Origin: Trichocoleus desertorum ATA4-8-CV12
Lineage (GTDB): Bacteria; Cyanobacteriota; Cyanobacteriia; FACHB-46
NCBI GenBank assembly: GCA_019358975.1
Contig: JAHHIL010000019.1
Span: 1,473 to 65,472 of the forward strand
Reading direction: 5' to 3'
DNA: 64,000 nt
Shown: positions 3,148 to 62,800 of the stretch, piece by piece
Position numbering within the stretch: the first letter of the stretch is position 1
Layout of the letters: each line of letters begins with the position of its first letter
Notes under the pieces: model-generated
Told to the model about the DNA's origin: nothing
The model's input: only the letters and a program-made list of their open reading frames with translations
Database searches by the model: none
Position numbers and translations under genes: made by a program

Positions 3148-4533
3148 TTATTCCCCGCTCACCAATTGTTCGATCGCATCTGCTTTTGTAGGAAGCGCTG
3201 CCGTCAGCACCTCAGAACTCGATTCTGTCACCAGCACATCATCTTCAATTCGGATGCCACGCACATCGGCAAACTGGGCCAGGCGATCCCAATTCACCAC
3301 GTCCTTGTAGCGCGATCGCCGTTCTGGGTCATTCAAAATTGCGGGCACTTGATAGAAACCGGGTTCAATCGTCACCAACATTCCTGGACGTAACGGGCGA
3401 TCGAGCCTTAAGTAACAGAGACCAAAGCGATCGCTGCGTTTTCTCCCTGCCTCATACCCTGCCAAGTCGCCCAAATCCTCCATATCATGCACATCCATAC
3501 CCAAGATGTGACCCACGCCATGCGGAAAGAACAGCGCGTGAGCATCCATTGCGACGAGGTCTTCTGGCTTGCCGCGCAGAATGCCTAAATCTAACAAACC
3601 TGCGGCAATAAGCAAGGCAGCGCTGAGGTGAAGGTCACGATACTCCACCCCTGGCTCAACTTTGGCAATGCAGATATCGTGGGCAGCTAGCACCACCTCA
3701 TACAGCACCCGTTGCGTAGGTGAAAACTTACCGGAAACAGGCCACGTCCGGGTGACATCTGCGGCCCAACCGCTGGCCGTTTCTGCCCCCACATCAGCCA
3801 AAAGCAAATCTCCAGACTTGAGGGCGTGGTGATACTGCTCATTGTGCAGCACCTCCCCCTGCACCGTGACGATGCTGTTGTAGGCAGAGGTCATATTCTG
3901 CGCTACAAACACGCTTTCCATAGAGGCTCGCACTGCCGCTTCGGTTTTGGCTCCAGGAGTTACTGCCATTCCGACACGATGGGCATTCACGGTGGCGACT
4001 GCTGCTTGTTTCAACTCTGCGATCGCCGCAGCATCATGAGTTAGCCGCAGAGTTACGATCGCCTCAGCTAGCGCTAAATCAATGCCTGTTAGTTGATGGG
4101 CAGGAGGGAGCGATCGCCCTAAAATCTGTGCCTGTTGCTGCTGAGTTGCGGTGTCTTGGACTGGAATTGTGGCCGCGCCAGCTGCTCGCATGCCTAAATC
4201 AGCTAGAGGAAAGGCAGCATCCGCACCGATCGCCGTAGCAATTTCATCACGAGTGGGGGTGGGCCCATGCCAGAGGGCGCTAGCAGGCGTGCCTTCATCT
4301 ATAAATAATTCCAGCTTGCCCGCTTCTAGCCGGACTGCTGCATTTTCTAGCGGTAAGCCCGCAAAGTAGAGAAAGTGGCTGCTGGCCCGAAACGGATACA
4401 CGTTAGCGGGAAAGTTGCGGGAACTGCGCCCGCCTGACCACAGCACCACGGGGCCATCAAATAAAGCCGCTAAACGCTGACGGCGATCGCGCAAAGCAGT
4501 GGCCAGCGCTTCAGGATTGCTAGGAATTTGCAT
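3148..4533 (-). CDS. pepP: Xaa-Pro aminopeptidase (M24B family)
   Basis: Contains HGVGHILGMDVHD, TIEPGFY and IRIEDDV metal-ligand motifs plus an N-terminal AMP_N-like region. Confidence 0.8.
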   Translation of the reverse strand: MQIPSNPEALATALRDRRQRLAALFDGPVVLWSGGRSSRNFPANVYPFRASSHFLYFAGLPLENAAVRLEAGKLELFIDEGTPASALWHGPTPTRDEIATAIGADAAFPLADLGMRAAGAATIPVQDTATQQQQAQILGRSLPPAHQLTGIDLALAEAIVTLRLTHDAAAIAELKQAAVATVNAHRVGMAVTPGAKTEAAVRASMESVFVAQNMTSAYNSIVTVQGEVLHNEQYHHALKSGDLLLADVGAETASGWAADVTRTWPVSGKFSPTQRVLYEVVLAAHDICIAKVEPGVEYRDLHLSAALLIAAGLLDLGILRGKPEDLVAMDAHALFFPHGVGHILGMDVHDMEDLGDLAGYEAGRKRSDRFGLCYLRLDRPLRPGMLVTIEPGFYQVPAILNDPERRSRYKDVVNWDRLAQFADVRGIRIEDDVLVTESSSEVLTAALPTKADAIEQLVSGE

Positions 4534-4551
4534 AACTAGACCGTAGCAGCT

Positions 4552-5166
4552 CTATTCTTTGACCAAAACCCCATTGAGGAAAATATCGGCTAAACCTTCG
4601 GCCATTTCTTGCATGGCTTTTGGTGAAGCCTTCTCACCCATCACCGTATCTTGGCTAAAACCTGCGATCGTAAACATGCCCAAGAAAATGCGCGCTACGA
4701 TTCTGGGGTTCATGGGGCGGTAAACGCCACGATCCATCGCAGTTTGAAAAAAGGCTTCGGCCACATCCGTCATCTTATCGACCACTTCTAGTTGGATGCG
4801 ATCGCGCAAATCGGGATGAAACTGCGCTTCCATAAAGCAAACGCGCAGCATGTCCATGTTTTGGTGGAGGTTCAGCATCCGTCGCCGCATCACCTGAGCT
4901 ACTGCTTTATAGCTGCCCATTTCGCTCAGCTCGGTCAGCAAATCCGTCAGGATCTCTATCCATCCTTGCGTGGCAACTTCAATCAAAATTGCCTTTTTAT
5001 TGGGGAAATGCCGAAATAATGTTCCCTCTGCGACCGCTGCTGCTTGAGCTAAATCTCGCGTGGTCGTCCCGTCGTAACCTTGTCGCGAGAACAATCTCTG
5101 GGCAGCTTGCAGAATCCGAGTTCGTGTTTCTGCTTCCGATTGGGGCGGTCGATTGCCAATTCGCAT
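4552..5166 (-). CDS. TetR/AcrR-family transcriptional regulator
   Basis: N-terminal HTH region (RILQAAQRLFSRQGYDGTTTRDLAQAAAVAEGTLFRHFPNK). It lies 18 nt upstream of pepP on the same strand. Confidence 0.85.
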   Translation of the reverse strand: MRIGNRPPQSEAETRTRILQAAQRLFSRQGYDGTTTRDLAQAAAVAEGTLFRHFPNKKAILIEVATQGWIEILTDLLTELSEMGSYKAVAQVMRRRMLNLHQNMDMLRVCFMEAQFHPDLRDRIQLEVVDKMTDVAEAFFQTAMDRGVYRPMNPRIVARIFLGMFTIAGFSQDTVMGEKASPKAMQEMAEGLADIFLNGVLVKE

Positions 5167-52615: not shown

Positions 52616-52867
52616 TCAATCTGCTTGAGCCGCTTTTGCTTCGTCTTCTAGCGCTTGGATGGCTAGTAGCAACTCTTCTTCTTGCACTTCAAAGTCTGCT
52701 TCAGACACGTCGCCCATATCAAACGCTAATTGCAGAGCCAGTAACCGCTTACTGAGATTCTCTTTATCGTCCCACTCAGCATTCACCCGTTCTTGAATTT
52801 GTGAACCTAGCCAGGTTATGCCTGCCAGGGGACCAGTAATGGGTGCTAATAGTAAGTCAAAAAACAT
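52616..52867 (-). CDS. gvpG: Gas vesicle protein GvpG
   Basis: LLLAPITGPLAGITWLGSQIQERV... followed by the acidic tail ...EADFEVQEEELLLAIQALEDE, typical of GvpG. 83 aa. Confidence 0.8.
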   Translation of the reverse strand: MFFDLLLAPITGPLAGITWLGSQIQERVNAEWDDKENLSKRLLALQLAFDMGDVSEADFEVQEEELLLAIQALEDEAKAAQAD

Positions 52868-52878
52868 AGCAAGTTAGC

Positions 52879-53622
52879 CTAATTTGATGAGTCAAGTTGA
52901 GCGAAGTTGTAGGGAGCGGTGAAGTTGTTGTAGCGAATCCGCAAACGGCCCTCAAATTGCAAATCCAAGGCTTCTACTTTTTCACTAAATGTGGGCTCGT
53001 CATCCCAAGCGATCAGATAAGCCGCGTTGTAGATCATGGCTTCTGTCAGCGGATCATTTTCTGATGTGGTGTTTGCGAGAGGATCTAAGGTGGCTCGAAA
53101 TACTTGAATGATGCTTTGCTTGCGAGCTTCTACTGCTTGTTCGATCGCCTGACCAATCCGAATTACCTCATCCATGCTGAGAGATTTACCCTCTAAGCGA
53201 TCGCGCTCGGTGCGTAGCTGCTCATCTTGAGCTAACAGGGCTTGTACCTCAGCCTCAGCGTCCCAAAATATTTTTACGCCAACTTCTCTTCTGCCATCTA
53301 GTTTATGAAAGAGCTGTTCTAATTTGGGTCCCTGAGTTGCAGTGAGTTGTTCTGTGACGGTGCGCCAATCCTCCACAATTAGACCAAACTGTAGGGGTAA
53401 CAGGGTTCGGTGGCCTGCATGCATGGCTTGTTCTAGCACCTTCTCATGGTCTAGCAAGTTGCGACGACTGGCTAAATAACGTTCTTGCTGGGCTTCAGAA
53501 TAGAGAAATGTAAACCCATCTAGAACATGGGTATGAACAGGTTGTTTATCTAAACCCTGAGTTTCTAGATGTTGGGGGCCAGGGGTAGGGAAGATGCCAT
53601 ACAAATACAATCCGGTTCCCAT
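52879..53622 (-). CDS. gvpF: Gas vesicle protein GvpF (GvpF/GvpL family)
   Basis: LYLYGIFP..., LLPLQFGLIV and REVGVKIFWD motifs. Start set to ATG 53622. Confidence 0.85.
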   Translation of the reverse strand: MGTGLYLYGIFPTPGPQHLETQGLDKQPVHTHVLDGFTFLYSEAQQERYLASRRNLLDHEKVLEQAMHAGHRTLLPLQFGLIVEDWRTVTEQLTATQGPKLEQLFHKLDGRREVGVKIFWDAEAEVQALLAQDEQLRTERDRLEGKSLSMDEVIRIGQAIEQAVEARKQSIIQVFRATLDPLANTTSENDPLTEAMIYNAAYLIAWDDEPTFSEKVEALDLQFEGRLRIRYNNFTAPYNFAQLDSSN

Positions 53623-53752
53623 CGACTTTTCTTTTCCTACTGCAATGTTTGAGTACTGAGTGAAATTAATTGCGTTTTTTATATAGCAATCCTTTTTGAT
53701 TCTTGAACGGGTGTGGGGGCTGCGCCCCTTGTTCACAAACCAGTTGCGATCG

Positions 53753-54214
53753 CTATAGGGGTTGCGAAGTCAAAACTAGCTTCAGTTTTGCTTGGATTAA
53801 ATTGAGTTGAGCTAGTCCCAAATCCACGCTGCCTTCGACTACTACACCCGTATTTAACAGGCGATCCAATAACTCCAAAATGGAGGGATTCGTGGAAGTT
53901 TCACCGGGGTAGTAACCTCCAGCTTTAGGCAGCAGATTGCCAATTTCTCCTAAGTCAATATTTAAGTCTGCGGGATCGACTTCAAAGATTTCGCAGAGAT
54001 GCACGACTTGTTCTTCTAACTTACGGAGGCTAGTAGCAGCTCGGTCTAAATCTTCGTCACTTAAGCGTCCTGCTTCCATCCGCCGAATCACCTGCGCTTC
54101 CATCAGTTGTCGCACTAACTCAACCACAGTCAGCAGTAATGGTGCTAAACCAGAATCTTTACTCGATCGCTGAGGTTCTAGTAATACGGGGGGTGGGGGG
54201 TCTGATAATGGCAT
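53753..54214 (-). CDS. gvpK: Gas vesicle protein GvpK
   Basis: GLAPLLLTVVELVRQLMEAQVIRRMEAGRLSDEDLDRAATSL is the conserved GvpK core. Confidence 0.85.
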   Translation of the reverse strand: MPLSDPPPPVLLEPQRSSKDSGLAPLLLTVVELVRQLMEAQVIRRMEAGRLSDEDLDRAATSLRKLEEQVVHLCEIFEVDPADLNIDLGEIGNLLPKAGGYYPGETSTNPSILELLDRLLNTGVVVEGSVDLGLAQLNLIQAKLKLVLTSQPL

Positions 54215-54363: not shown

Positions 54364-54735
54364 CTAAGCAGGAGCTGTGGGTAAGGAGGCGGGAGCGGTG
54401 CGTAAGGCTCGCAATTCTGTTTCTAGACCCTCAATCCGCTGGAGGAGCTGTTGATTGGCCTCCATCAAGCTGTGGGTTTGGCTACTGAGATGAGGATCAC
54501 TTTCCCACCAGTTGATGCCAATTTCCTTCGCCTTATCTACCGAGGAAATCAGCAAGCGAATCCGAATGCTCAGCAGTTCGGTGGAGCCAACTGAGACGGA
54601 GATATCTCCCGCGATCACAATGCCTTTATCTAAAACTCGTTCTAGAACATCGGCTAAGGTTGAGCCTTGAGTAGCGGTGGCGATCGCACCACGGTTAGAA
54701 CTGCTAGGGGCGGGCATTTGGGGGAAAGTAGTCAC
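54364..54735 (-). CDS. gvpJ: Gas vesicle protein GvpJ (GvpA/J/M family)
   Basis: TLADVLERVLDKGIVIAGDISVSVGSTELLSIRIRLLISSVDKAKEIGINWW is the GvpA-family core, here with N- and C-terminal extensions. Confidence 0.88.
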   Translation of the reverse strand: MTTFPQMPAPSSSNRGAIATATQGSTLADVLERVLDKGIVIAGDISVSVGSTELLSIRIRLLISSVDKAKEIGINWWESDPHLSSQTHSLMEANQQLLQRIEGLETELRALRTAPASLPTAPA

Positions 54736-54747
54736 AGTGGGGCATCC

Positions 54748-56031
54748 TTAGGAAGTGACGTAGAGGCGATTGTGGCGTTGAGCTAGGATTCCCTTTTGAG
54801 CTAGGGAACGTAACGCATTCACTGCCTGAAATCGATTCATGCTTAAAGCTGCTTCAATTTCTGAGACTCGTGCTCCCTCAGCCTGACGCAGATAGGTATA
54901 TACTTCTGCCTCATCTAGCCCTAGTTGGTCTTGGTCGTTAATTTCGGTTGCGGCAATTTCGGCGATCGCTGTGGCAACAGGCTCAGCCGCCGCTTGAGGT
55001 TCAGCCACCTTCTCCACAATCTTTTCGGCGACCTTAATAGTGGCTGGCTCGGCTACAACTGAGGTGGTTGTGATAGTCACGGTGCGATCGGCATACTCTG
55101 CTCGGGGTGGTGCAGTTGTAGGTGTGGGTGCGATCGCCTTAGGTTCGCGGCAAACGAGTTCGTTTAGGAGTTCCCAAAGCAGGGTAGTAGATTCCTGGAG
55201 GGGCAAGCTAGTGCGGGAGAGCAACACATCCATGCAAATATCGCGAAAGTCAGCATCTTCCGCCATGACAGGAATATTATGCTCTTGGCAAACTTTGGCG
55301 ATCGTGATGCCAGAGCGTAAACCAGAAGATTTCTCAGCCCCTGATTTGAGCCGAAAGGCTTTGACTAACTGAGTGATTAAAATGGCACTTTCGCGCTCGA
55401 TCTCGGTTTTCTGCACCAAAATCTCTTGCTGAGTCAGCTCATCTGGCTCTGGCATGTTGATCGTGACCAGACGATCCATCAAGGCATCTTGGGTGGAATG
55501 CACCCCACAGTATTCTTCTGGATTGGAGGTGAAGATGGCCCGGAACTGAGGATTGACTCGCACATATTCGGGACGATTGCCGCTGGGTGGCAAAGCCAAA
55601 ATCTTTTCTTCTAAGGCGGAAAGTAAAACGTTGTTGACTTCGGGACGAGAGCGGTTGAACTCGTCGTAGACCAAGGTGAAGCCTTCGCGGCAAGCCAAAG
55701 TGAGGCGGGAATCTACCCAGTTTTGCTTGAGTTCATCCTCGACTTTAACCACGCTGTGAATGAAGTTATCTACTACTTTTTTGCGGGTATAACCCAATTG
55801 GTTACCAATTAGGTCTGAAGTTTTGAACTCATCATCCCCAAATACCAACATAATGGGCCGAGTCAAAAGATCAGCCAAGTGTAAAGCGAGGGTGGTTTTA
55901 CCTGTGCCAGCAGGGCCGCGCAGATGTACTGAGAAACCAGATTGTAGGTAGCGCAAAGCTCTAGCAGCCACACGCTCAACGGAGGGAGTGCTGACAAATC
56001 GACGGGGGCGGGCTTGTAGAACGGTACTCAC
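54748..56031 (-). CDS. gvpN: Gas vesicle AAA+ ATPase GvpN with an unusual linker and C-terminal winged-helix-like extension
   Basis: Walker [16 protein letters not shown] and Walker [10 protein letters not shown] (CbbQ/NirQ/GvpN-type AAA). A Pro/Ala/Thr/Glu linker follows, then the tail [55 protein letters not shown] start, sharing a GTGA overlap with gvpC. Confidence 0.88.
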
Positions 56032-57149
56032 AGGTTAAATTCCTCTTGAGTGTAATAGACGCGATCGCGCTGCGTAATTAAACCTTTGGTGATTAAGGAG
56101 CGGAGCACATCAACGGCTTGAATGCGATTGATTGCTAAAGCGGTTTCCAGCTCTACCAGACGGGCTCCTTGGACTTGGTGTAGATAGTTGTAAACTTCTT
56201 TTTCGATTTCCACTGCCGCAGGTTGAATAGCGGAAATTGGAGCGCTAGTAGGCTCTGGATTTGACCTCTCCTCCATCCCCGTTCCCACGGGAGAGGGGTG
56301 CCGCAGGTGGGGCGAGGTTTGGTTGGAATAGATTGAATTTGATTGATGATTTACATCTAGATCTACGCCCCAAACAGAAGCTCGCAGATTGGTGCAATAC
56401 TGCTGTAGCTCAGCGCGGAACGTGGCGAAGCGTTGGAATAGAGCTACGACATTGGCTTGGCGATCGCTTCTACTTTGGCTGAGCGTTTGTTGCAGTTGTT
56501 GGGCTCGATCTTCTCGTAGTAGCTCTAACTCCCACAAATAGCTCTGCACATCAGCACTGAGTTTCTCGACAAAGGTAGTGAGTTCTTTTGCTTGCTGGGT
56601 TCGCATTAGAACCCGTTCATGCTGATTAGTCGATAAAAGCGCTTGAGTTTCTTGTTGAAGCGTAGAAACTTGCGTTTGGATCTCTTGGCGCAGCAGGGTG
56701 ACGCTGATATTTAGTTCGGAGTGGAATTGGCGTAGTTCTTGGGCTAACTGCTCAGCCATCAGCGATCGCTCAATTGCGGTCAGTGATAGGAACTCAGCCG
56801 TCTGCTGTTGGAGCTGCTGTACGAAAGTATCTAGTTGCTCAGCTAGCTCCTCGGCTTGGAGTTGACGCTCTAAGCGACTATAGGCTAAAAAATTCTGGGT
56901 TTCTTGTTGCAACACCTGGACTGATTGTTGCAATTGCAGGCGGAACAAATGTTGATTGGCTTGCCAAAGCTCGCTCTCCTCAGCCAAATCAGCGCGGAAT
57001 GTAGCGAGGTTGTGGTGCAGCTGATCTGCTTTTACTTGGCGTTGCTGCCGCGTTACCGCTAAAGCCGCTTGGACTTGTTGCTGGCGCTGAGCTAGTTGCT
57101 GCTGACGCTGCCGCCGCTGTTCTTGCCATAAATGTCTCAGAGCAACCAT
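56028..57149 (-). CDS. gvpC: GvpC-like gas vesicle outer-surface protein with a C-terminal winged-helix-like extension
   Basis: It sits directly downstream of gvpA. Two clean 33-aa repeats are [33 protein letters not shown] and [33 protein letters not shown], with more degenerate units around them. The repeat region ends in LRASVWG, compared with DLFVSIFG at the end of Anabaena GvpC as I recall it. Confidence 0.75.
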
Positions 57150-57243: not shown

Positions 57244-57462
57244 CTAAGAAGCAGGAACAGCAGCCTGAGTGGTCAAACCCACTGCTTCGGCGTACTTTAG
57301 GTAGGTTTCAACCGAAGCAATGACTACCCGTGCTTCGATTGCCAATAGTTCAATTCCTACGAGAGAAACGCGAACCCAAGCATCAATTACAATGCCTTTG
57401 TCGAGGATGCGGTCAATTACTTCAGCCAAGCTAGAGGAGGAGTTTACTTTTTCAACAGCCAT
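57244..57462 (-). CDS. gvpA: Major gas vesicle structural protein GvpA
   Basis: [63 protein letters not shown] is a near-canonical cyanobacterial GvpA. 72 aa. Confidence 0.97.
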
Positions 57463-57985: not shown

Positions 57986-58249
57986 TTATGCTTTCACTCG
58001 CTGCTCAAAATCTTCGCGAGTTTTTTCCAGCAGCGTCAAAGCTTCTTGATACACCTCTGGATGCTCTTGCTTTAACCACGCTAACAGCCGCGCCACTTGA
58101 ATATTTTTTAGTTCCAAATCAGCTTGAAAAATGGCTGCTGTTGCCATGTGAGGTGCATATTCTGTTGGATGTCCCTGCATGATAAACGTAGCGGTTAGCA
58201 GCCTCAATGCCTGTCGCCGTACTGGATCGTCTGTTTGTCCTGAAAGCAT
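57986..58249 (-). CDS. Small hypothetical protein between the AAA+ ATPase gene and gvpA
   Basis: 87-aa ORF on the same strand as the gvp genes, 45 nt downstream of the AAA+ gene. Its composition looks helical. No family is recognised. Confidence 0.4.
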   Translation of the reverse strand: MLSGQTDDPVRRQALRLLTATFIMQGHPTEYAPHMATAAIFQADLELKNIQVARLLAWLKQEHPEVYQEALTLLEKTREDFEQRVKA

Positions 58250-58250
58250 A

Positions 58251-58293
58251 AGGGGAAAGGATGAAGGAGGAGAGATGAGGGATGAAGGAGGAG
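58251..58293. repeat. GGATGAAGGAGG-type short repeats
   Basis: aggggaaaggatgaaggaggagagatgagggatgaaggaggag belongs to the same motif family as 14048-14218 and 33252-33356. Confidence 0.65.
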
Positions 58294-60123
58294 TTAGGAG
58301 GTTTGTCGTTGGGCTGCTAAAGCTTGATAGGCGGTAACGAAATCATCATTGCGAATGCGAACTTGGGTGGGATCTGCCAAACCTTGGGCTCGGTACTGTC
58401 GAATCGCTTCTAAAGCGGCTTGATTACTGAGTAAGGCTAAATCTGCACCATTCCAGCCTTCTGTTTGTGCAGCCCAAGTTGCTAGGTCTACGCCTTGTAG
58501 AGGTCGATCTTGGTTATGAACTTGCAGAATGGCGAGGCGACTGGCTTGATCGGGTAAATCTACTTTGAGTTGCAAATCTAAGCGTCCCGCTCGCAGGAGG
58601 GCAGGATCGAGAGCATCGGGGCGGTTGGTCGCTCCAATCAGCAAAACGTTGGGACAACCCTGTAAGCCGTCGAGTTCTGTTAACAGTTGACCGACGACGC
58701 GATCGCTCACCCCTGAGTCCCCATTGAAACGGCCTCGTGCTGGGGCTAATGTGTCAATCTCATCGACGAATACAACACAAGGAGCGGCTTGGCGAGCTTT
58801 GCCAAATAATTCCCGTACAGATTGCTCGGCAGCACCCACCCAACGGCTCAGCAATTCTGGGCCATTAACGGCGATGAAGTTGGCTCTGGCTTGAGAGGCC
58901 ACAGCTTTAGCAAGTAGCGTTTTACCTGTGCCTGGGGGTCCCCAGAGCAGAATGCCGCGTGGCGCTTTGGCTCCTGTTTGTTGATAGAGTTCTGGGTAGA
59001 GAAGTGCGCCTTCTACCGATTCTTGCAATGTTTGCTTGAGGTCATCCAGGCCACCGATGTCATGCCAAGCCACATCCGGCGACTCAATCTCTACAGAGCG
59101 CAGAACGGCGGGTTTTACTTCTTTGATGGCTTGCAAAAAGTCTGGTTGGGTCAGGGTCATTTCTTCTGGCAGGGGTTCATCTAAAGAAGGAACTAAGCGG
59201 CGCAAGGCACTATAAGCAGCTTTTTGGCAAAGGGCTTTTAGGTCTGCACCGACTAAACCCACTGCCAAGTCAGCGATCGCGCTTAAATTAACCGACTCCT
59301 CCAAGGGCATGGACTGGGTGAGGATTTGCAAAATCTCTAATCTGCCATCGCGATCGGGCACCCGGAACTGGACTTCGCGATCGAAACGACCAGGACGACG
59401 CAACGCTGGGTCAAGATAATCAGGGCGGTTGGTGGCAGCGAGAACAATCACACCCTCGGTTTTGGCAAAGCCATCCATCAAACCCAACAGTTGGGCGACC
59501 AGACGCTTTTCGACTTCCCCTTCGACTTTGCTGCGATCGGGAGCGAGGCTATCAATTTCGTCAATAAACACCAGGCAAGGAGCTGATTTGGCGGCTTTTT
59601 CAAAAATGGCCCGCAACCGACTTTCAGCTTCTCCGTAGTATTTGCCCATCACCTCTGGGCCAACGATCGCAATGTAGTTAACTCCCAAATCTTCGGCTAA
59701 GGCGCGGGCAGTTAAAGTTTTACCCGTTCCTGGTGGCCCGACTAGCAACACGCCTTTCGTTGGTTCCAAGCCCAACCGTTGCAGCAACTCTGGACGCTTG
59801 AGGGGAATTTCTACCAGTTCTCGCAGTTCTTTTAAGACAGGTGCCAATCCACCCACAGTTTTCAGCGGTGGGGCTTTGGAGTCGTGGGTCGGTGGCGTTA
59901 CGGTGACTTCGGGGGTTGAGGCTGGTGTTGTATCAGCACCGGGAGAAGTGACAGGCCCACGACGCACGCCCATACCTGAGGGGATGTTTCCTTGTCGGGG
60001 AATACTACTTAAACTGCGGGAGCGAAACTGAATATCTGTCTTGATTTCTCCCTGTTCTGCCTTTTCTTCCAGGGCTTTAGCGAGTTCCAGCAGTTGCTCA
60101 AACCCTTTGAATAAGTTGTCCAT
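58294..60123 (-). CDS. CDC48/VCP-like ATPase with two AAA+ domains and no recognisable Cdc48 N-domain
   Basis: D1 has GPPGTGKTLTARALA, VFIDEIDSL and ATNRPDYLDPALRRPGRFD. D2 has GPPGTGKTLLAKAVA, VFVDEIDTL and ATNRPDALDPALLRAGRLD. The N-terminal 100 aa or so are low-complexity. Confidence 0.88.
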   Translation of the reverse strand: MDNLFKGFEQLLELAKALEEKAEQGEIKTDIQFRSRSLSSIPRQGNIPSGMGVRRGPVTSPGADTTPASTPEVTVTPPTHDSKAPPLKTVGGLAPVLKELRELVEIPLKRPELLQRLGLEPTKGVLLVGPPGTGKTLTARALAEDLGVNYIAIVGPEVMGKYYGEAESRLRAIFEKAAKSAPCLVFIDEIDSLAPDRSKVEGEVEKRLVAQLLGLMDGFAKTEGVIVLAATNRPDYLDPALRRPGRFDREVQFRVPDRDGRLEILQILTQSMPLEESVNLSAIADLAVGLVGADLKALCQKAAYSALRRLVPSLDEPLPEEMTLTQPDFLQAIKEVKPAVLRSVEIESPDVAWHDIGGLDDLKQTLQESVEGALLYPELYQQTGAKAPRGILLWGPPGTGKTLLAKAVASQARANFIAVNGPELLSRWVGAAEQSVRELFGKARQAAPCVVFVDEIDTLAPARGRFNGDSGVSDRVVGQLLTELDGLQGCPNVLLIGATNRPDALDPALLRAGRLDLQLKVDLPDQASRLAILQVHNQDRPLQGVDLATWAAQTEGWNGADLALLSNQAALEAIRQYRAQGLADPTQVRIRNDDFVTAYQALAAQRQTS

Positions 60124-60141
60124 GCTTGTGCCGCCAGTGGG

Positions 60142-60177
60142 GTGATGCCTGTTGAGTGATGCCCGTTGAGTGATACC
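60142..60177. promoter_or_regulatory. Tandem 14-bp direct repeats in the divergent AAA+/ArsA intergenic region
   Basis: gtgatgcctgttga (60142-60155), gtgatgcccgttga (60156-60169), and a partial gtgatacc (60170-60177). The intergenic region is 110 nt. Confidence 0.35.
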
Positions 60178-60233
60178 AGTAGAACGATCGGTTCTAGGCC
60201 CATTGATTCAGGTGTAACAATCTTTACGAGCCT

Positions 60234-62114
60234 ATGCATCAGTATGATTCCCTGCAACTCGCTCTCTTTAGCGGCAAAGGGGGTGTCGGTAAAACTACCC
60301 TTTCCTGTAGCTTCGCTCGCCGCTGGGCTAGACAGTTTCCTGACCAACAAATTCTTTTAGTTTCTACTGATCCAGCTCACTCCTTAGGCGATGTGCTGCA
60401 AGTAGAAACCAGTAATGCGCCCCATGCCTTAGCGGATTTACCCAACTTACAAGTGCGATCGCTGGATGCGGCTGCCCTCCTCCAAGACTTTAAAACTCGG
60501 TACGGTCAAGTTTTGGAGCTTTTGGTAGAGCGGGGTAGTTTTGTCCAGGGAGAAGATTTATCTCCCGTTTGGAACTTAAGTTGGCCTGGGTTGGATGAAT
60601 TGATGGGCATTCTGGAAATCCAACGCCTCTTGCGAGAGGGAGAAGCCGATCGCGTCGTGGTCGATATGGCACCCAGCGGCCACACTTTGAACTTGTTTAA
60701 GTTAATGGACTTCTTGGATGAGTTGCTGGCAGCTCTAGAACTGTTTCAAGAAAAACATCGAGTTTTGAGCCAAAGCTTTACCGGACGCTACACAGCCGAT
60801 GATGCGGATGCTTTTCTCCACGAGATGAAGGCAGAGCTACTAACTGGGCGACAGCTTTTGCAAAACCCTGACTGCACAGCTTGTTTGGTAGTGGCGATCG
60901 CTGAACCAATGAGCTTTCTAGAAACTCAGCGATTTTTAGAGGCACTAAACCAACTGCAAATTCCCTGCGGTGGATTGCTGGTGAATCACATTCTCACACC
61001 ACTTGAGGATGGCGATCGCTACAGTGAGCAGCAGGAGATGTTAGGCAAGTTCCAAACCCTCAGCACCCTCAGTACTGACAAGCCGATTTTTACGGTGCCC
61101 CAACAACTTGAGGAACCTGTAGGCTCAGCTGCTTTGGATCAAGTCGTGGCTCAGATCGCTCCTTTGGGAATCGTGGCTCTCCCTTCGCCCGTGGTGGTGC
61201 AATGGCCTACTAAGATTCTGCCGAGTTTCGAGGATTTTGTGGCCGTAGGTCGTCAGCTCTTACTCGTTGGAGGGAAAGGGGGAGTGGGTAAAACCACAGT
61301 CGCAGCCGCGATCGCTTGGGGTATGGCTCAAAAATATCCAGAGCGCAAAGTTCGGGTGATTTCCATCGATCCAGCTCACTCTTTGGGCGATGCTTTTGGG
61401 CAACCATTAGGACACCAACCGACGGCGTTAACCCACAACTTAACGGGGCAGGAAATTGATGCTGGACAAGTCTTAGAGCAGTTCCGAGAAGAGTACCTGT
61501 GGGAATTGGCGGAGATGATGAGTGGAGATAGCACCGAGGGCGATCGCTCGCTGAGCATTGCCTACGGCCCCGAAGCATGGCGACGGATTGCAGCTCAGGC
61601 TCTACCTGGAATTGATGAGATGTTGTCGCTGCTTACGGTAATCGATTTGCTGGAGCGACAGGAGCAAGATTTGATTATTTTGGATACCGCTCCTACCGGG
61701 CACTTGCTCCGCTTCTTAGAAATGCCTACAGCTCTCGGAGATTGGCTAGCCTGGATTTTTAAGCTGTGGATCAAGTATCAAGACGTGTTGGGTCGTACCG
61801 AATTTATGGGTCGTCTGCGATCGCTGCGGCAACGGGTGATGCAAGCGCAAAAACGGCTCCAAGACCCGAAATATACCGAGTTTATTTTGGTGTTACAAGC
61901 GCAATCTGCCATTGTGGCGGAGGGTCAGCGTTTAGCTCAGTCCTTAGCAGAGATGGGGGTGCCTCAACGCTACGTGGTGCACAATCGCTTTGAACCAGAA
62001 CTTCCACTGCCTGCTGATGCCTTGCCTCAACACACCACCATTCATCTGCCAGTCTTGCCTCGCTCAGTTACTCCTCTCGCTCGGATTCAAGGTGCAGCGA
62101 AGTTATTGTTCTAA
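60234..62114 (+). CDS. Tandem (two-domain) ArsA/Get3/TRC40-family ATPase
   Basis: The first half has GKGGVGKTTLSCSFA, STDPAHSLGD and DMAPSGHTL. The second half has GKGGVGKTTVAAAIA, SIDPAHSLGDAFG and LDTAPTGHLLRFLEMP. Confidence 0.88.
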   Translation: MHQYDSLQLALFSGKGGVGKTTLSCSFARRWARQFPDQQILLVSTDPAHSLGDVLQVETSNAPHALADLPNLQVRSLDAAALLQDFKTRYGQVLELLVERGSFVQGEDLSPVWNLSWPGLDELMGILEIQRLLREGEADRVVVDMAPSGHTLNLFKLMDFLDELLAALELFQEKHRVLSQSFTGRYTADDADAFLHEMKAELLTGRQLLQNPDCTACLVVAIAEPMSFLETQRFLEALNQLQIPCGGLLVNHILTPLEDGDRYSEQQEMLGKFQTLSTLSTDKPIFTVPQQLEEPVGSAALDQVVAQIAPLGIVALPSPVVVQWPTKILPSFEDFVAVGRQLLLVGGKGGVGKTTVAAAIAWGMAQKYPERKVRVISIDPAHSLGDAFGQPLGHQPTALTHNLTGQEIDAGQVLEQFREEYLWELAEMMSGDSTEGDRSLSIAYGPEAWRRIAAQALPGIDEMLSLLTVIDLLERQEQDLIILDTAPTGHLLRFLEMPTALGDWLAWIFKLWIKYQDVLGRTEFMGRLRSLRQRVMQAQKRLQDPKYTEFILVLQAQSAIVAEGQRLAQSLAEMGVPQRYVVHNRFEPELPLPADALPQHTTIHLPVLPRSVTPLARIQGAAKLLF

Positions 62115-62122
62115 AGCCCAAG

Positions 62123-62800
62123 CTAAACAAAGTGATAAGGAGGGAGCGCTTCACTCAAAGTTAGCTCCCAGTGGGGACAGTGAATTTGCCAGGTTTGCAA
62201 GTGTTTGTACAGTTGGGATGATTCCTGGGCACTCACCAACAGATAAACTCGTTGGCTACCATCTTGAGCTTCACCCAAGACTGGACCCGGATAGATTTGG
62301 GCGATCGCTTGCACCAAGGTTTGCCACTCAGCCGTTTGTTGCTGTTGCTGCTCATACTGACTTTGGAAACGGCGTTTTTTGGCTAAAAAATATTCTCGCC
62401 CCTGAGCTTCTGTGGGCAAGGTTGCTTCGATTTCTAAGACTAAGGGGGTTAATTTCAGGGTGTATTCAGCTTTGCCACTCACCCGTGCTAACTTCTCTAG
62501 ATACTCCTGGGTGTGGGTTTGCAGATGGGCTAGTAACCCTTCAGTAGACAAAAACCGAGTGCCAAACCGCAGCGGCAATAGAGCGGTGTGCTCAAACAAT
62601 TCTCGAATTACGCGATCGTGTGTCAACACTGCTTGGACTAACTGAGCGTCATGATCTTGTAGCGTTTCAAAAGACAGCTCAGGTTCGACCAGGGCAGAGA
62701 GGCGATCGCAAGTGACTAGCTCCAAAGCACTCACAATTCCAGACGGCAGTTTGATGGCACTTGGGGGCGTATTGAGAAAAGCATAGGTGTACATCGGCAT
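62123..62800 (-). CDS. Second GvpF/GvpL-family gas vesicle protein
   Basis: MYTYAFL..., LLPLRFGTRF and AEYTLKL parallel the motifs of the gvpF at 52879-53622. Confidence 0.75.
   Translation of the reverse strand: MPMYTYAFLNTPPSAIKLPSGIVSALELVTCDRLSALVEPELSFETLQDHDAQLVQAVLTHDRVIRELFEHTALLPLRFGTRFLSTEGLLAHLQTHTQEYLEKLARVSGKAEYTLKLTPLVLEIEATLPTEAQGREYFLAKKRRFQSQYEQQQQQTAEWQTLVQAIAQIYPGPVLGEAQDGSQRVYLLVSAQESSQLYKHLQTWQIHCPHWELTLSEALPPYHFV

Follow-up and report, generated by a model that had tools for sequence, protein, structure and literature searches.

GvpC proteins coat the outside of gas vesicles, where they stiffen the shell and increase the collapse pressure, and GvpN is the ATPase of vesicle assembly. 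Cyanobacterial GvpC has been described as a series of uniform 33-residue repeats, and in the same 2024 structural review haloarchaeal GvpC alone is described with a compact C-terminal domain carried on an extended linker (PMC10903477). This haloarchaeal domain contains a zinc-finger motif and has GvpN, GvpO and GvpC itself as partners (PMC9372576). Here we analyse the gas-vesicle cluster on the minus strand of a 64,000-nucleotide stretch of DNA from Trichocoleus desertorum ATA4-8-CV12 (the window, to whose positions all coordinates below refer), in which both the GvpC-like protein and the AAA+ ATPase GvpN end in copies of one module, according to structure prediction a ~57-residue minimal winged helix-turn-helix domain of the TrmB/MarR type. 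Many GvpN and long GvpC proteins of cyanobacteria have this module as a standard part, although it had not been described.

The GvpC-like open reading frame (ORF; 56028-57149, 373 aa), gvpN (54748-56031, 427 aa) and their tails lie at the positions and on the minus strand given by an earlier sequence-only reading of this DNA, which had counted 29 identities over 52 positions by hand and had claimed that the two tails are homologous. BLASTP with the last ~100 residues of each protein returned one single local alignment with 30 identities and 40 positives over 53 positions, one single-residue gap and E = 2e-19. The Smith-Waterman score of the tails is 146, compared to 23.4 +/- 4.6 in 2000 shuffles with a best shuffle of 48. 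By this statistic, which had been named beforehand as the measure on which the claim could fail, the similarity is significant (Z = 26.7). As proteins the GvpN and GvpC modules are 57% identical; at the DNA level the two window copies are 60% identical, with only 35% identity at third codon positions.

The window GvpC has the 33-residue repeats, the long helix and the gene position between gvpA and gvpN that characterise GvpC proteins, and an identical (100%) protein is named gas vesicle protein GvpC in the record of the source metagenome-assembled genome (MAG). We modelled the full-length protein by AlphaFold2 (AF2) with 72 homologues. In the model, the alpha-helical repeat rod forms an uninterrupted helix over residues 3-258 (56376-57143; predicted local distance difference test score, pLDDT, up to 96). 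It is followed by a disordered S/P/N-rich linker (residues 259-310, 56220-56375) that has no secondary structure and a pLDDT below 50 across most of residues 255-309, and then by the winged-helix module (residues 311-367, 56049-56219; pLDDT 90-96). An acidic six-residue tail and the stop codon (56028-56030) complete the frame. The overall predicted template modelling score (pTM) of 0.32 is expected because the parts are independent of each other. Within the rod, one unit passes the threshold of TIGR02641 (gvpC_cyan_rpt; 28.8 bits versus a cut-off of 18.8, residues 110-142), and Pfam PF01304 reaches 18.5 bits, under its cut-off of 21. Clear 33-residue units span residues 77-109, 110-142, 161-193 and 194-226, and a weaker unit spans residues 23-51. 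The rod is not a plain 33-residue tandem, its strongest self-similarity having a period of 84 that corresponds to two 33-residue units and an 18-residue spacer. Across homologues, GvpC linkers are rich in P/A/S/V/T and comprise 29-151 residues.

GvpN contains its AAA+ core at residues 12-273 (55213-55998), where the equivalog model TIGR02640 (gas_vesic_GvpN) scores 400.6 bits versus a cut-off of 266.8; AAA_5 (PF07728) matches with E = 6e-20, and the Walker A motif GPAGTGKT is present in the translation. After the lid motif follows a low-complexity, A/P/T/E/V-rich linker of 76 residues (residues 297-372, 54916-55143), and the winged-helix module closes the protein (residues 373-427, 54751-54915). 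GvpN linkers vary from 18 to 276 residues across 71 genomes (median 64) and are A/E/S/P/T/D-rich across homologues. Each module therefore sits behind a low-complexity linker and after the recognised part of its protein, as the sequence-only reading had described and as the pLDDT profile corroborates for GvpC. The GvpN copies, as seen among the tails of alignment A2 (see below) and at loci L004, L005, L008, L016 and others, fall into two sub-types. One has a GvpC-like wing (...QRDRLYV...); the other has A-R-P where the first has G-A-R-L, and its wing is replaced by a longer stretch rich in Gly, Ser and Lys (...KGLLTNQSSDGKAVAY).

The same reading had guessed a winged helix, a guess that the structural models bear out. 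For modelling, we aligned 94 non-redundant tails from database homologues of both proteins (alignment A2), with the window GvpC tail as the first row and the window GvpN tail included. The resulting AF2 model (mean pLDDT 89, pTM 0.75) predicts helices at residues 2-18, 23-30 and 34-46, a single-residue bridge at 21 and a hairpin of strands 50-53 and 56-59, and the same elements recur at residues 311-367 of the full-length GvpC model. Foldseek searches against the PDB matched winged helices only (TMq 0.65-0.87, root-mean-square deviation 1.0-2.1 Å, all probabilities 1.00), among them Zalpha domains, a Sulfolobus DNA-binding protein, MepR, OhrR, MarR, IclR, CadC, SelB and an O-methyltransferase dimerisation domain. 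Every Foldseek E-value is above 1e-3, as expected for a query of just 65 residues. At the sequence level, TrmB (PF01978) is the leading family, with matches at E <= 0.01 in 77 of these 94 sequences, ahead of HTH_27, MarR_2, MarR and IclR; the window tails score 22.4-22.6 bits (GvpC) and 25.4 bits (GvpN) compared to the Pfam gathering score of 25.6. A profile search of PDB sequences returned nothing significant, with the PapI-like protein 2htj as its best match (E = 0.017). Membership in the Zalpha family was considered and rejected. Alignment to ADAR1 Zalpha by hhalign, with the ADAR1 sequence and numbering entered by hand, gave a probability of 6.7%, and the module has Val and Arg at the Z-DNA-contacting positions Asn173 and Tyr177 of ADAR1, so that these contacts are not conserved.

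To determine the distribution of the module, we scanned one genome per species, which yielded 154 GvpN relatives, and kept the best 80, all from cyanobacteria or uncultured bins. A hidden Markov model built from the tails was applied to every ORF in these 80 loci (up to ~20 kb), and the patterns were tallied by hand from the per-locus table. GvpN carries the module in 71 loci and lacks it in nine, and the GvpC-like ORF directly upstream carries it in 59 (four of these copies being divergent or truncated). Both proteins have the module in 52 loci, GvpC only in seven, GvpN only in 14 and neither in two; in the other five the contig ends too early to tell. The GvpC-only loci form one clade that includes Egbenema and Drouetiella, whose GvpN proteins terminate in an acidic, disordered tail. 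GvpN alone has the module in Nostoc, Anabaena azotica, Sphaerospermopsis, Richelia, Planktothrix, Floridaenema, Aerosakkonema and a Phormidium, and the module is on neither protein in Aliinostoc and Dolichospermum circinale. No further ORF with the module was found in the 80 loci or in the window. In the clade of module-less GvpN proteins, six of seven tails (L039, L040, L045, L047, L048, L051) have the motif [FHY][AV]P[QH][SA]R[IV]I soon after the AAA+ lid; it is present in six of 82 GvpN overall and nowhere outside this clade. This could be a linear element particular to the clade, possibly a peptide ligand, or just a sign of common descent.

Database searches extend this picture. Among the listed homologues, 118 of 119 GvpC-like and 120 of 120 GvpN proteins have the module. 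When 1.84 billion representative proteins were searched exhaustively with a profile of the module, no more than 291 matched at E <= 1e-3 (194 at E <= 1e-10), and in nearly all of the best 150 the matched stretch is located at or near the C-terminus. The 120 newly returned matches comprise 98 GvpC-like proteins, seven GvpN and 15 short fragments of linker plus module. As every classifiable new match is the C-terminus of a GvpC-like protein or of GvpN, the module appears, on sequence grounds, to be a winged-helix subfamily specific to cyanobacterial gas-vesicle proteins. The pair is common in filamentous cyanobacteria. A word-indexed search of 5.8 billion proteins with a profile of the two tails, a method too insensitive for this purpose, yielded three candidates and one match, a 78-aa fragment. 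Two records call for comment. One module-bearing GvpC-like entry (P0084) is labelled as an "Actinomycetota bacterium" MAG, and its contig is probably mis-binned because all other matches with a named organism are cyanobacterial. Locus L073, a contig of 4854 bp, contains an identical GvpN fragment on both strands (1-1185 plus, 3670-4854 minus), which looks like an inverted-repeat assembly artefact.

Annotation of the module in databases is patchy and automatic. Precomputed matches to PF01978 or PF12802 are attached to about one in four of the GvpN entries listed and to a few GvpC entries, a Planktothrix serta entry is named "GvpC (modular protein)", and one fragment (P0007) was automatically named "predicted DNA-binding transcriptional regulator" by JGI. 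We found no paper in the searchable literature in which a winged helix, helix-turn-helix or DNA-binding domain is connected with either protein, and the module pair is in this sense not previously described. These results qualify the sequence-only reading, according to which the module was expected on neither protein. That expectation is not supported, given the 71 GvpN and 59 GvpC-like proteins that carry the module in the 80 loci, and is at most partly right, the module being absent from the Dolichospermum lineage to which the model cluster of the field belongs. The premise of the reading was right in that short GvpCs ending after the repeats exist, the GvpCs of Nostocales and Planktothrix loci (stop-to-stop ORFs of ~140-250 residues) having no module, and wrong for GvpN, of which forms without the module are a minority among the relatives. 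Of the counter-argument that the reading had itself raised, namely that the tail might be a standard and already annotated feature, "standard" largely applies, and "annotated" applies in the patchy, automatic sense just described.

To follow the history of the two copies, we compared 130 aligned tails. For 128 of them the nearest neighbour belongs to the same class, GvpC or GvpN. Mean tail identity is 0.59 between GvpC copies and 0.42 between GvpN copies, and the GvpC and GvpN tails of one genome are as similar to each other (0.42) as those of different genomes (0.42), which rejects concerted evolution or gene conversion between the copies. Both the two orthologous groups without gene conversion and the low identity at third codon positions in the window indicate that the duplication is old, and on the sequence comparison the copies are ancient paralogues, vertically inherited as two orthologous groups. 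The module is also the best-conserved part of GvpC, with a mean pairwise identity of 63%, whereas the rod reaches 46% and the linker 26%. In the GvpC module, L331, R342, L352, Q360, R363 and Y365 are invariant, and G328, A329, R330, Q344, V346, D347, L349, R350, G356, R361 and D362 are at least 93% conserved. The most conserved surface residues of the GvpC copy (86-100%) are R330, N341, R342, Q344, D347, R350, Q360, R361, D362 and R363. Judged from predicted secondary structure rather than from coordinates, the conserved surface residues would lie on strand 1, the third helix and the wing.

The GvpN copy differs between lineages. In genomes with both copies it retains the GvpC signature G-A-R, E-I-E, R-F-Q-x-V-D, A-L-R-S-L, whereas it has a different consensus signature in the GvpN-only lineages. 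Relaxed constraint on the GvpN copy where GvpC has no module was rejected, since at equal divergence of the AAA+ core the modules of both kinds of genome are equally similar (identity 0.41 versus 0.41 and 0.65 versus 0.62).

The sequence-only reading had suggested a common docking partner, a heterodimerisation tag or nucleic-acid binding as the function. We propose that the module is a tethered docking domain and that both copies recognise one highly conserved ligand at the gas-vesicle surface or in the assembly machinery, a tentative reading to which we assign a probability of roughly 0.45. It is suggested by the combination of properties described above: the module is conserved, folded, tethered and confined to Gvp proteins, it is more constrained than the rod, and either copy can persist alone. 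Candidates for the ligand are the shell of GvpA, a protein that is also extremely conserved, some other conserved Gvp protein, and the module itself in a further copy. With the GvpC rod lying along the GvpA ribs, many modules would be displayed on flexible leashes around the vesicle, where they could add avidity, form cross-links or recruit factors, and the GvpN module would hold the low-abundance ATPase at that same site while the AAA+ ring acts on the shell. Since each copy is found without the other, as in the seven GvpC-only and 14 GvpN-only loci, a shared third ligand or self-association is favoured over an obligate heterodimer, and either of the two fits all four distribution patterns.

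Two observations weigh against the docking proposal. The face formed by strand 1, helix 3 and the wing, to which the conserved residues map in the prediction, would correspond to the DNA-binding face of TrmB/MarR-type proteins, and the arginines and polar residues conserved on the modelled third helix and wing would suit contacts with nucleic acid. Moreover, phylogeny confounds the comparison of genomes that have both copies with those that have only the GvpN copy, since the latter are Nostocales and a few Oscillatoriales.

Binding of nucleic acid is the main alternative, which we consider less likely than docking. The GvpC copy would then anchor the vesicles, and the GvpN copy the assembly ATPase, on the nucleoid or on an RNA, which would serve positioning, partitioning or co-translational assembly, or the module would act as a sequence-specific regulator of gvp genes. 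Besides the predicted location of the conserved arginines, this alternative draws on the module's nearest sequence families, which are DNA-binding winged helices (foremost TrmB, as counted above), and on its top Foldseek matches, which bind nucleic acid (Zalpha, the Sulfolobus DNA-binding protein, MepR, OhrR, IclR and SelB). An AAA+ core followed by a C-terminal helix-turn-helix is moreover a recurrent arrangement in ATPases that act on DNA, the GvpN copies have a median isoelectric point (pI) of 8.1 and a median net charge of +1, and the automatic JGI name points in the same direction. The GvpC copies, however, lean slightly to the acidic side (median pI 5.8, median net charge -1) and precede an acidic tail, features that disfavour non-specific DNA binding by these copies. 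A lone winged helix on a floppy tether has no dimerisation element, the residues equivalent to Asn173 and Tyr177 of Zalpha are not conserved, and the subfamily was never found as a stand-alone regulator or on a non-Gvp protein in the 80 loci, the window or the search of 1.84 billion proteins. An operator role would also be ill-suited to an abundant shell-coating protein whose module is free after assembly. The 400 bp upstream of gvpA in 71 and 55 loci contain no conserved operator-like motif: there is no conserved k-mer beyond the ubiquitous GCGATCGC palindrome and no common inverted repeat, and k-mer and inverted-repeat counts do not exceed those of shuffles except for this palindrome and clade-specific words. 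Less likely still is the specific form in which GvpC displays many nucleic-acid-binding copies of the module around the vesicle and GvpN carries the module as well. If true, many filamentous cyanobacteria would have their gas vesicles physically attached to the nucleoid or to an RNA, and a gas-filled organelle would be positioned or partitioned by hitch-hiking on DNA, with its assembly ATPase at the same spot.

A heterodimerisation tag that recruits the ATPase onto GvpC-coated vesicles is improbable as the module's sole function. The idea gains from the paralogy of the two domains and from the adjacency of their genes, which overlap by 4 nt between start and stop codon, as well as from the 52 genomes in which both copies are present. 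The GvpN copy, furthermore, has the GvpC-type signature only where GvpC has the module too, and the haloarchaeal GvpC C-terminal domain does bind GvpN (PMC9372576). An obligate partnership is nevertheless hard to reconcile with the 14 genomes that retain a constrained GvpN module without a module on GvpC and with the seven that retain a highly conserved GvpC module without one on GvpN, and an obligate GvpC-GvpN heterodimer as the sole role is accordingly unlikely. When tails were ranked by similarity, the rank of the own-genome GvpN tail was spread evenly from 1 to 48 of 51, a weak argument against pairing because sequence similarity does not measure how an interface co-evolves.

In a window that stems from a MAG and in which gvpC and gvpN are adjacent, one might suspect that the tails are similar by chance, through an artefact of assembly or annotation, or through local duplication (recent and neutral) or gene conversion in this genome. 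These explanations can be dismissed given the statistics of the similarity (Z = 26.7, E = 2e-19), the two-module arrangement in 50 independent species genomes besides the window, the orthologous grouping and near-random third-codon-position identity (35%) of the copies, and the stronger conservation of the module than of the remainder of GvpC.

The other genes of the cluster are arranged as in related loci, in the order gvpA-gvpC-gvpN-gvpJ-gvpK-gvpF-gvpG. In the window, gvpA is located at 57244-57462, gvpJ at 54364-54735, gvpK at 53753-54214, gvpF at 52879-53736 and gvpG at 52616-52867, all on the minus strand. The start codon of gvpN overlaps the stop codon of gvpC in the sequence GTGA (56028-56031, where the minus strand reads ...AACCTGTGAGTACC..., in agreement with the ORF coordinates), and the translation of gvpN may be coupled to that of gvpC through this 4-nt overlap. 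The window GvpK is a fusion of a GvpK domain (residues 13-95) and a GvpA-like Gas_vesicle domain (PF00741, residues 111-149); such a GvpK/GvpA-like fusion has been named as a candidate nucleator (PMC10903477). The GTG-start ORF of gvpF (285 aa) probably begins too early, because matches to the family models begin only at residue 42 for Pfam and residue 55 for NCBIfam, and residue 38 is a Met (MGTGLYLYG). Upstream of gvpA, at 57986-62800, lie four genes that also adjoin gvp clusters in other cyanobacteria. The first encodes an 87-aa protein without Pfam match (57986-58249, minus; in 23 of the 80 loci) and the second a double AAA+ ATPase resembling CDC48 (58294-60123, minus; in 35 loci). The third product is a tandem ATPase of the ArsA/Get3 type (60234-62114, plus; in 33 loci), and the fourth is another member of the GvpF/L family that is probably GvpW (62123-62800, minus; in 19 loci). 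In loci of Nostocales, it is downstream of gvpG that the counterparts of these four genes are found. Near a cluster obliged to handle the very hydrophobic GvpA, a Get3-like chaperone and a Cdc48-like unfoldase are noteworthy.

The survey shows that most filamentous cyanobacterial GvpN proteins and most GvpCs of the Leptolyngbya, Oculatella and Oscillatoria type carry a dedicated, gas-vesicle-specific winged helix. This bears on how GvpN reaches the growing shell, where cyanobacterial gas vesicles sit and how they bundle. The model organism Anabaena (Dolichospermum) flos-aquae very probably lacks the module, because its relative D. circinale does, and this would explain why AlphaFold surveys show cyanobacterial GvpC as a bare repeat rod (PMC10903477). 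Natural GvpC-only, GvpN-only and module-free clusters are available for comparison, and with small soluble domains, deletion alleles and these natural variants the function of the module is directly testable. GvpC C-termini are the standard site of cargo fusions on gas vesicles, and a natural tethered binding domain at this site could be a ready-made handle.

Compared with described systems, the module shares its topology with TrmB/MarR domains (PF01978, PF12802, PF01047), which are also its best sequence match and of which the MepR, OhrR, MarR and IclR structures superpose with TM-scores of 0.75-0.87. TrmB transcription factors, however, have an N-terminal DNA-binding domain followed by dimerisation and effector domains, whereas the module is C-terminal behind a rod or an AAA+ core, is isolated on a disordered tether without dimerisation helix or ligand-binding domain, and is carried by a structural protein and an ATPase. 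Zalpha domains (ADAR1, PKZ, ORF112) match the module in topology and are just as minimal in size (4wcg, 4kmf and 1qbj at TMq 0.77-0.84). AAA+ ATPases with a small terminal targeting domain include ClpX, with its N-terminal zinc-binding domain, and Orc1/Cdc6, with its C-terminal winged helix. GvpN resembles these in combining an AAA+ core with a small terminal domain, and differs in that its core is AAA_5/MoxR-like and that a long disordered linker keeps its winged helix away from the lid instead of letting it pack there. The classical short cyanobacterial GvpCs of Anabaena flos-aquae, Calothrix and Nostoc are homologous rods of 33-residue repeats encoded between gvpA and gvpN, from which the window GvpC differs by its 256-residue rod, linker and winged helix. 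In overall plan it is closest to GvpC of Halobacterium salinarum, with repeats, an extended linker and a compact C-terminal domain (PMC10903477), whereas no copy of that domain is reported on haloarchaeal GvpN (PMC9372576) and cyanobacterial GvpN does have a copy of the module. The window GvpC module contains no Cys and one His, and, being a winged helix without Cys, it resembles the haloarchaeal zinc-finger domain in architecture and proposed role only. The two domains are therefore analogues rather than homologues, and the docking proposed here would match that of the haloarchaeal GvpC C-terminal domain in function, not in ancestry.

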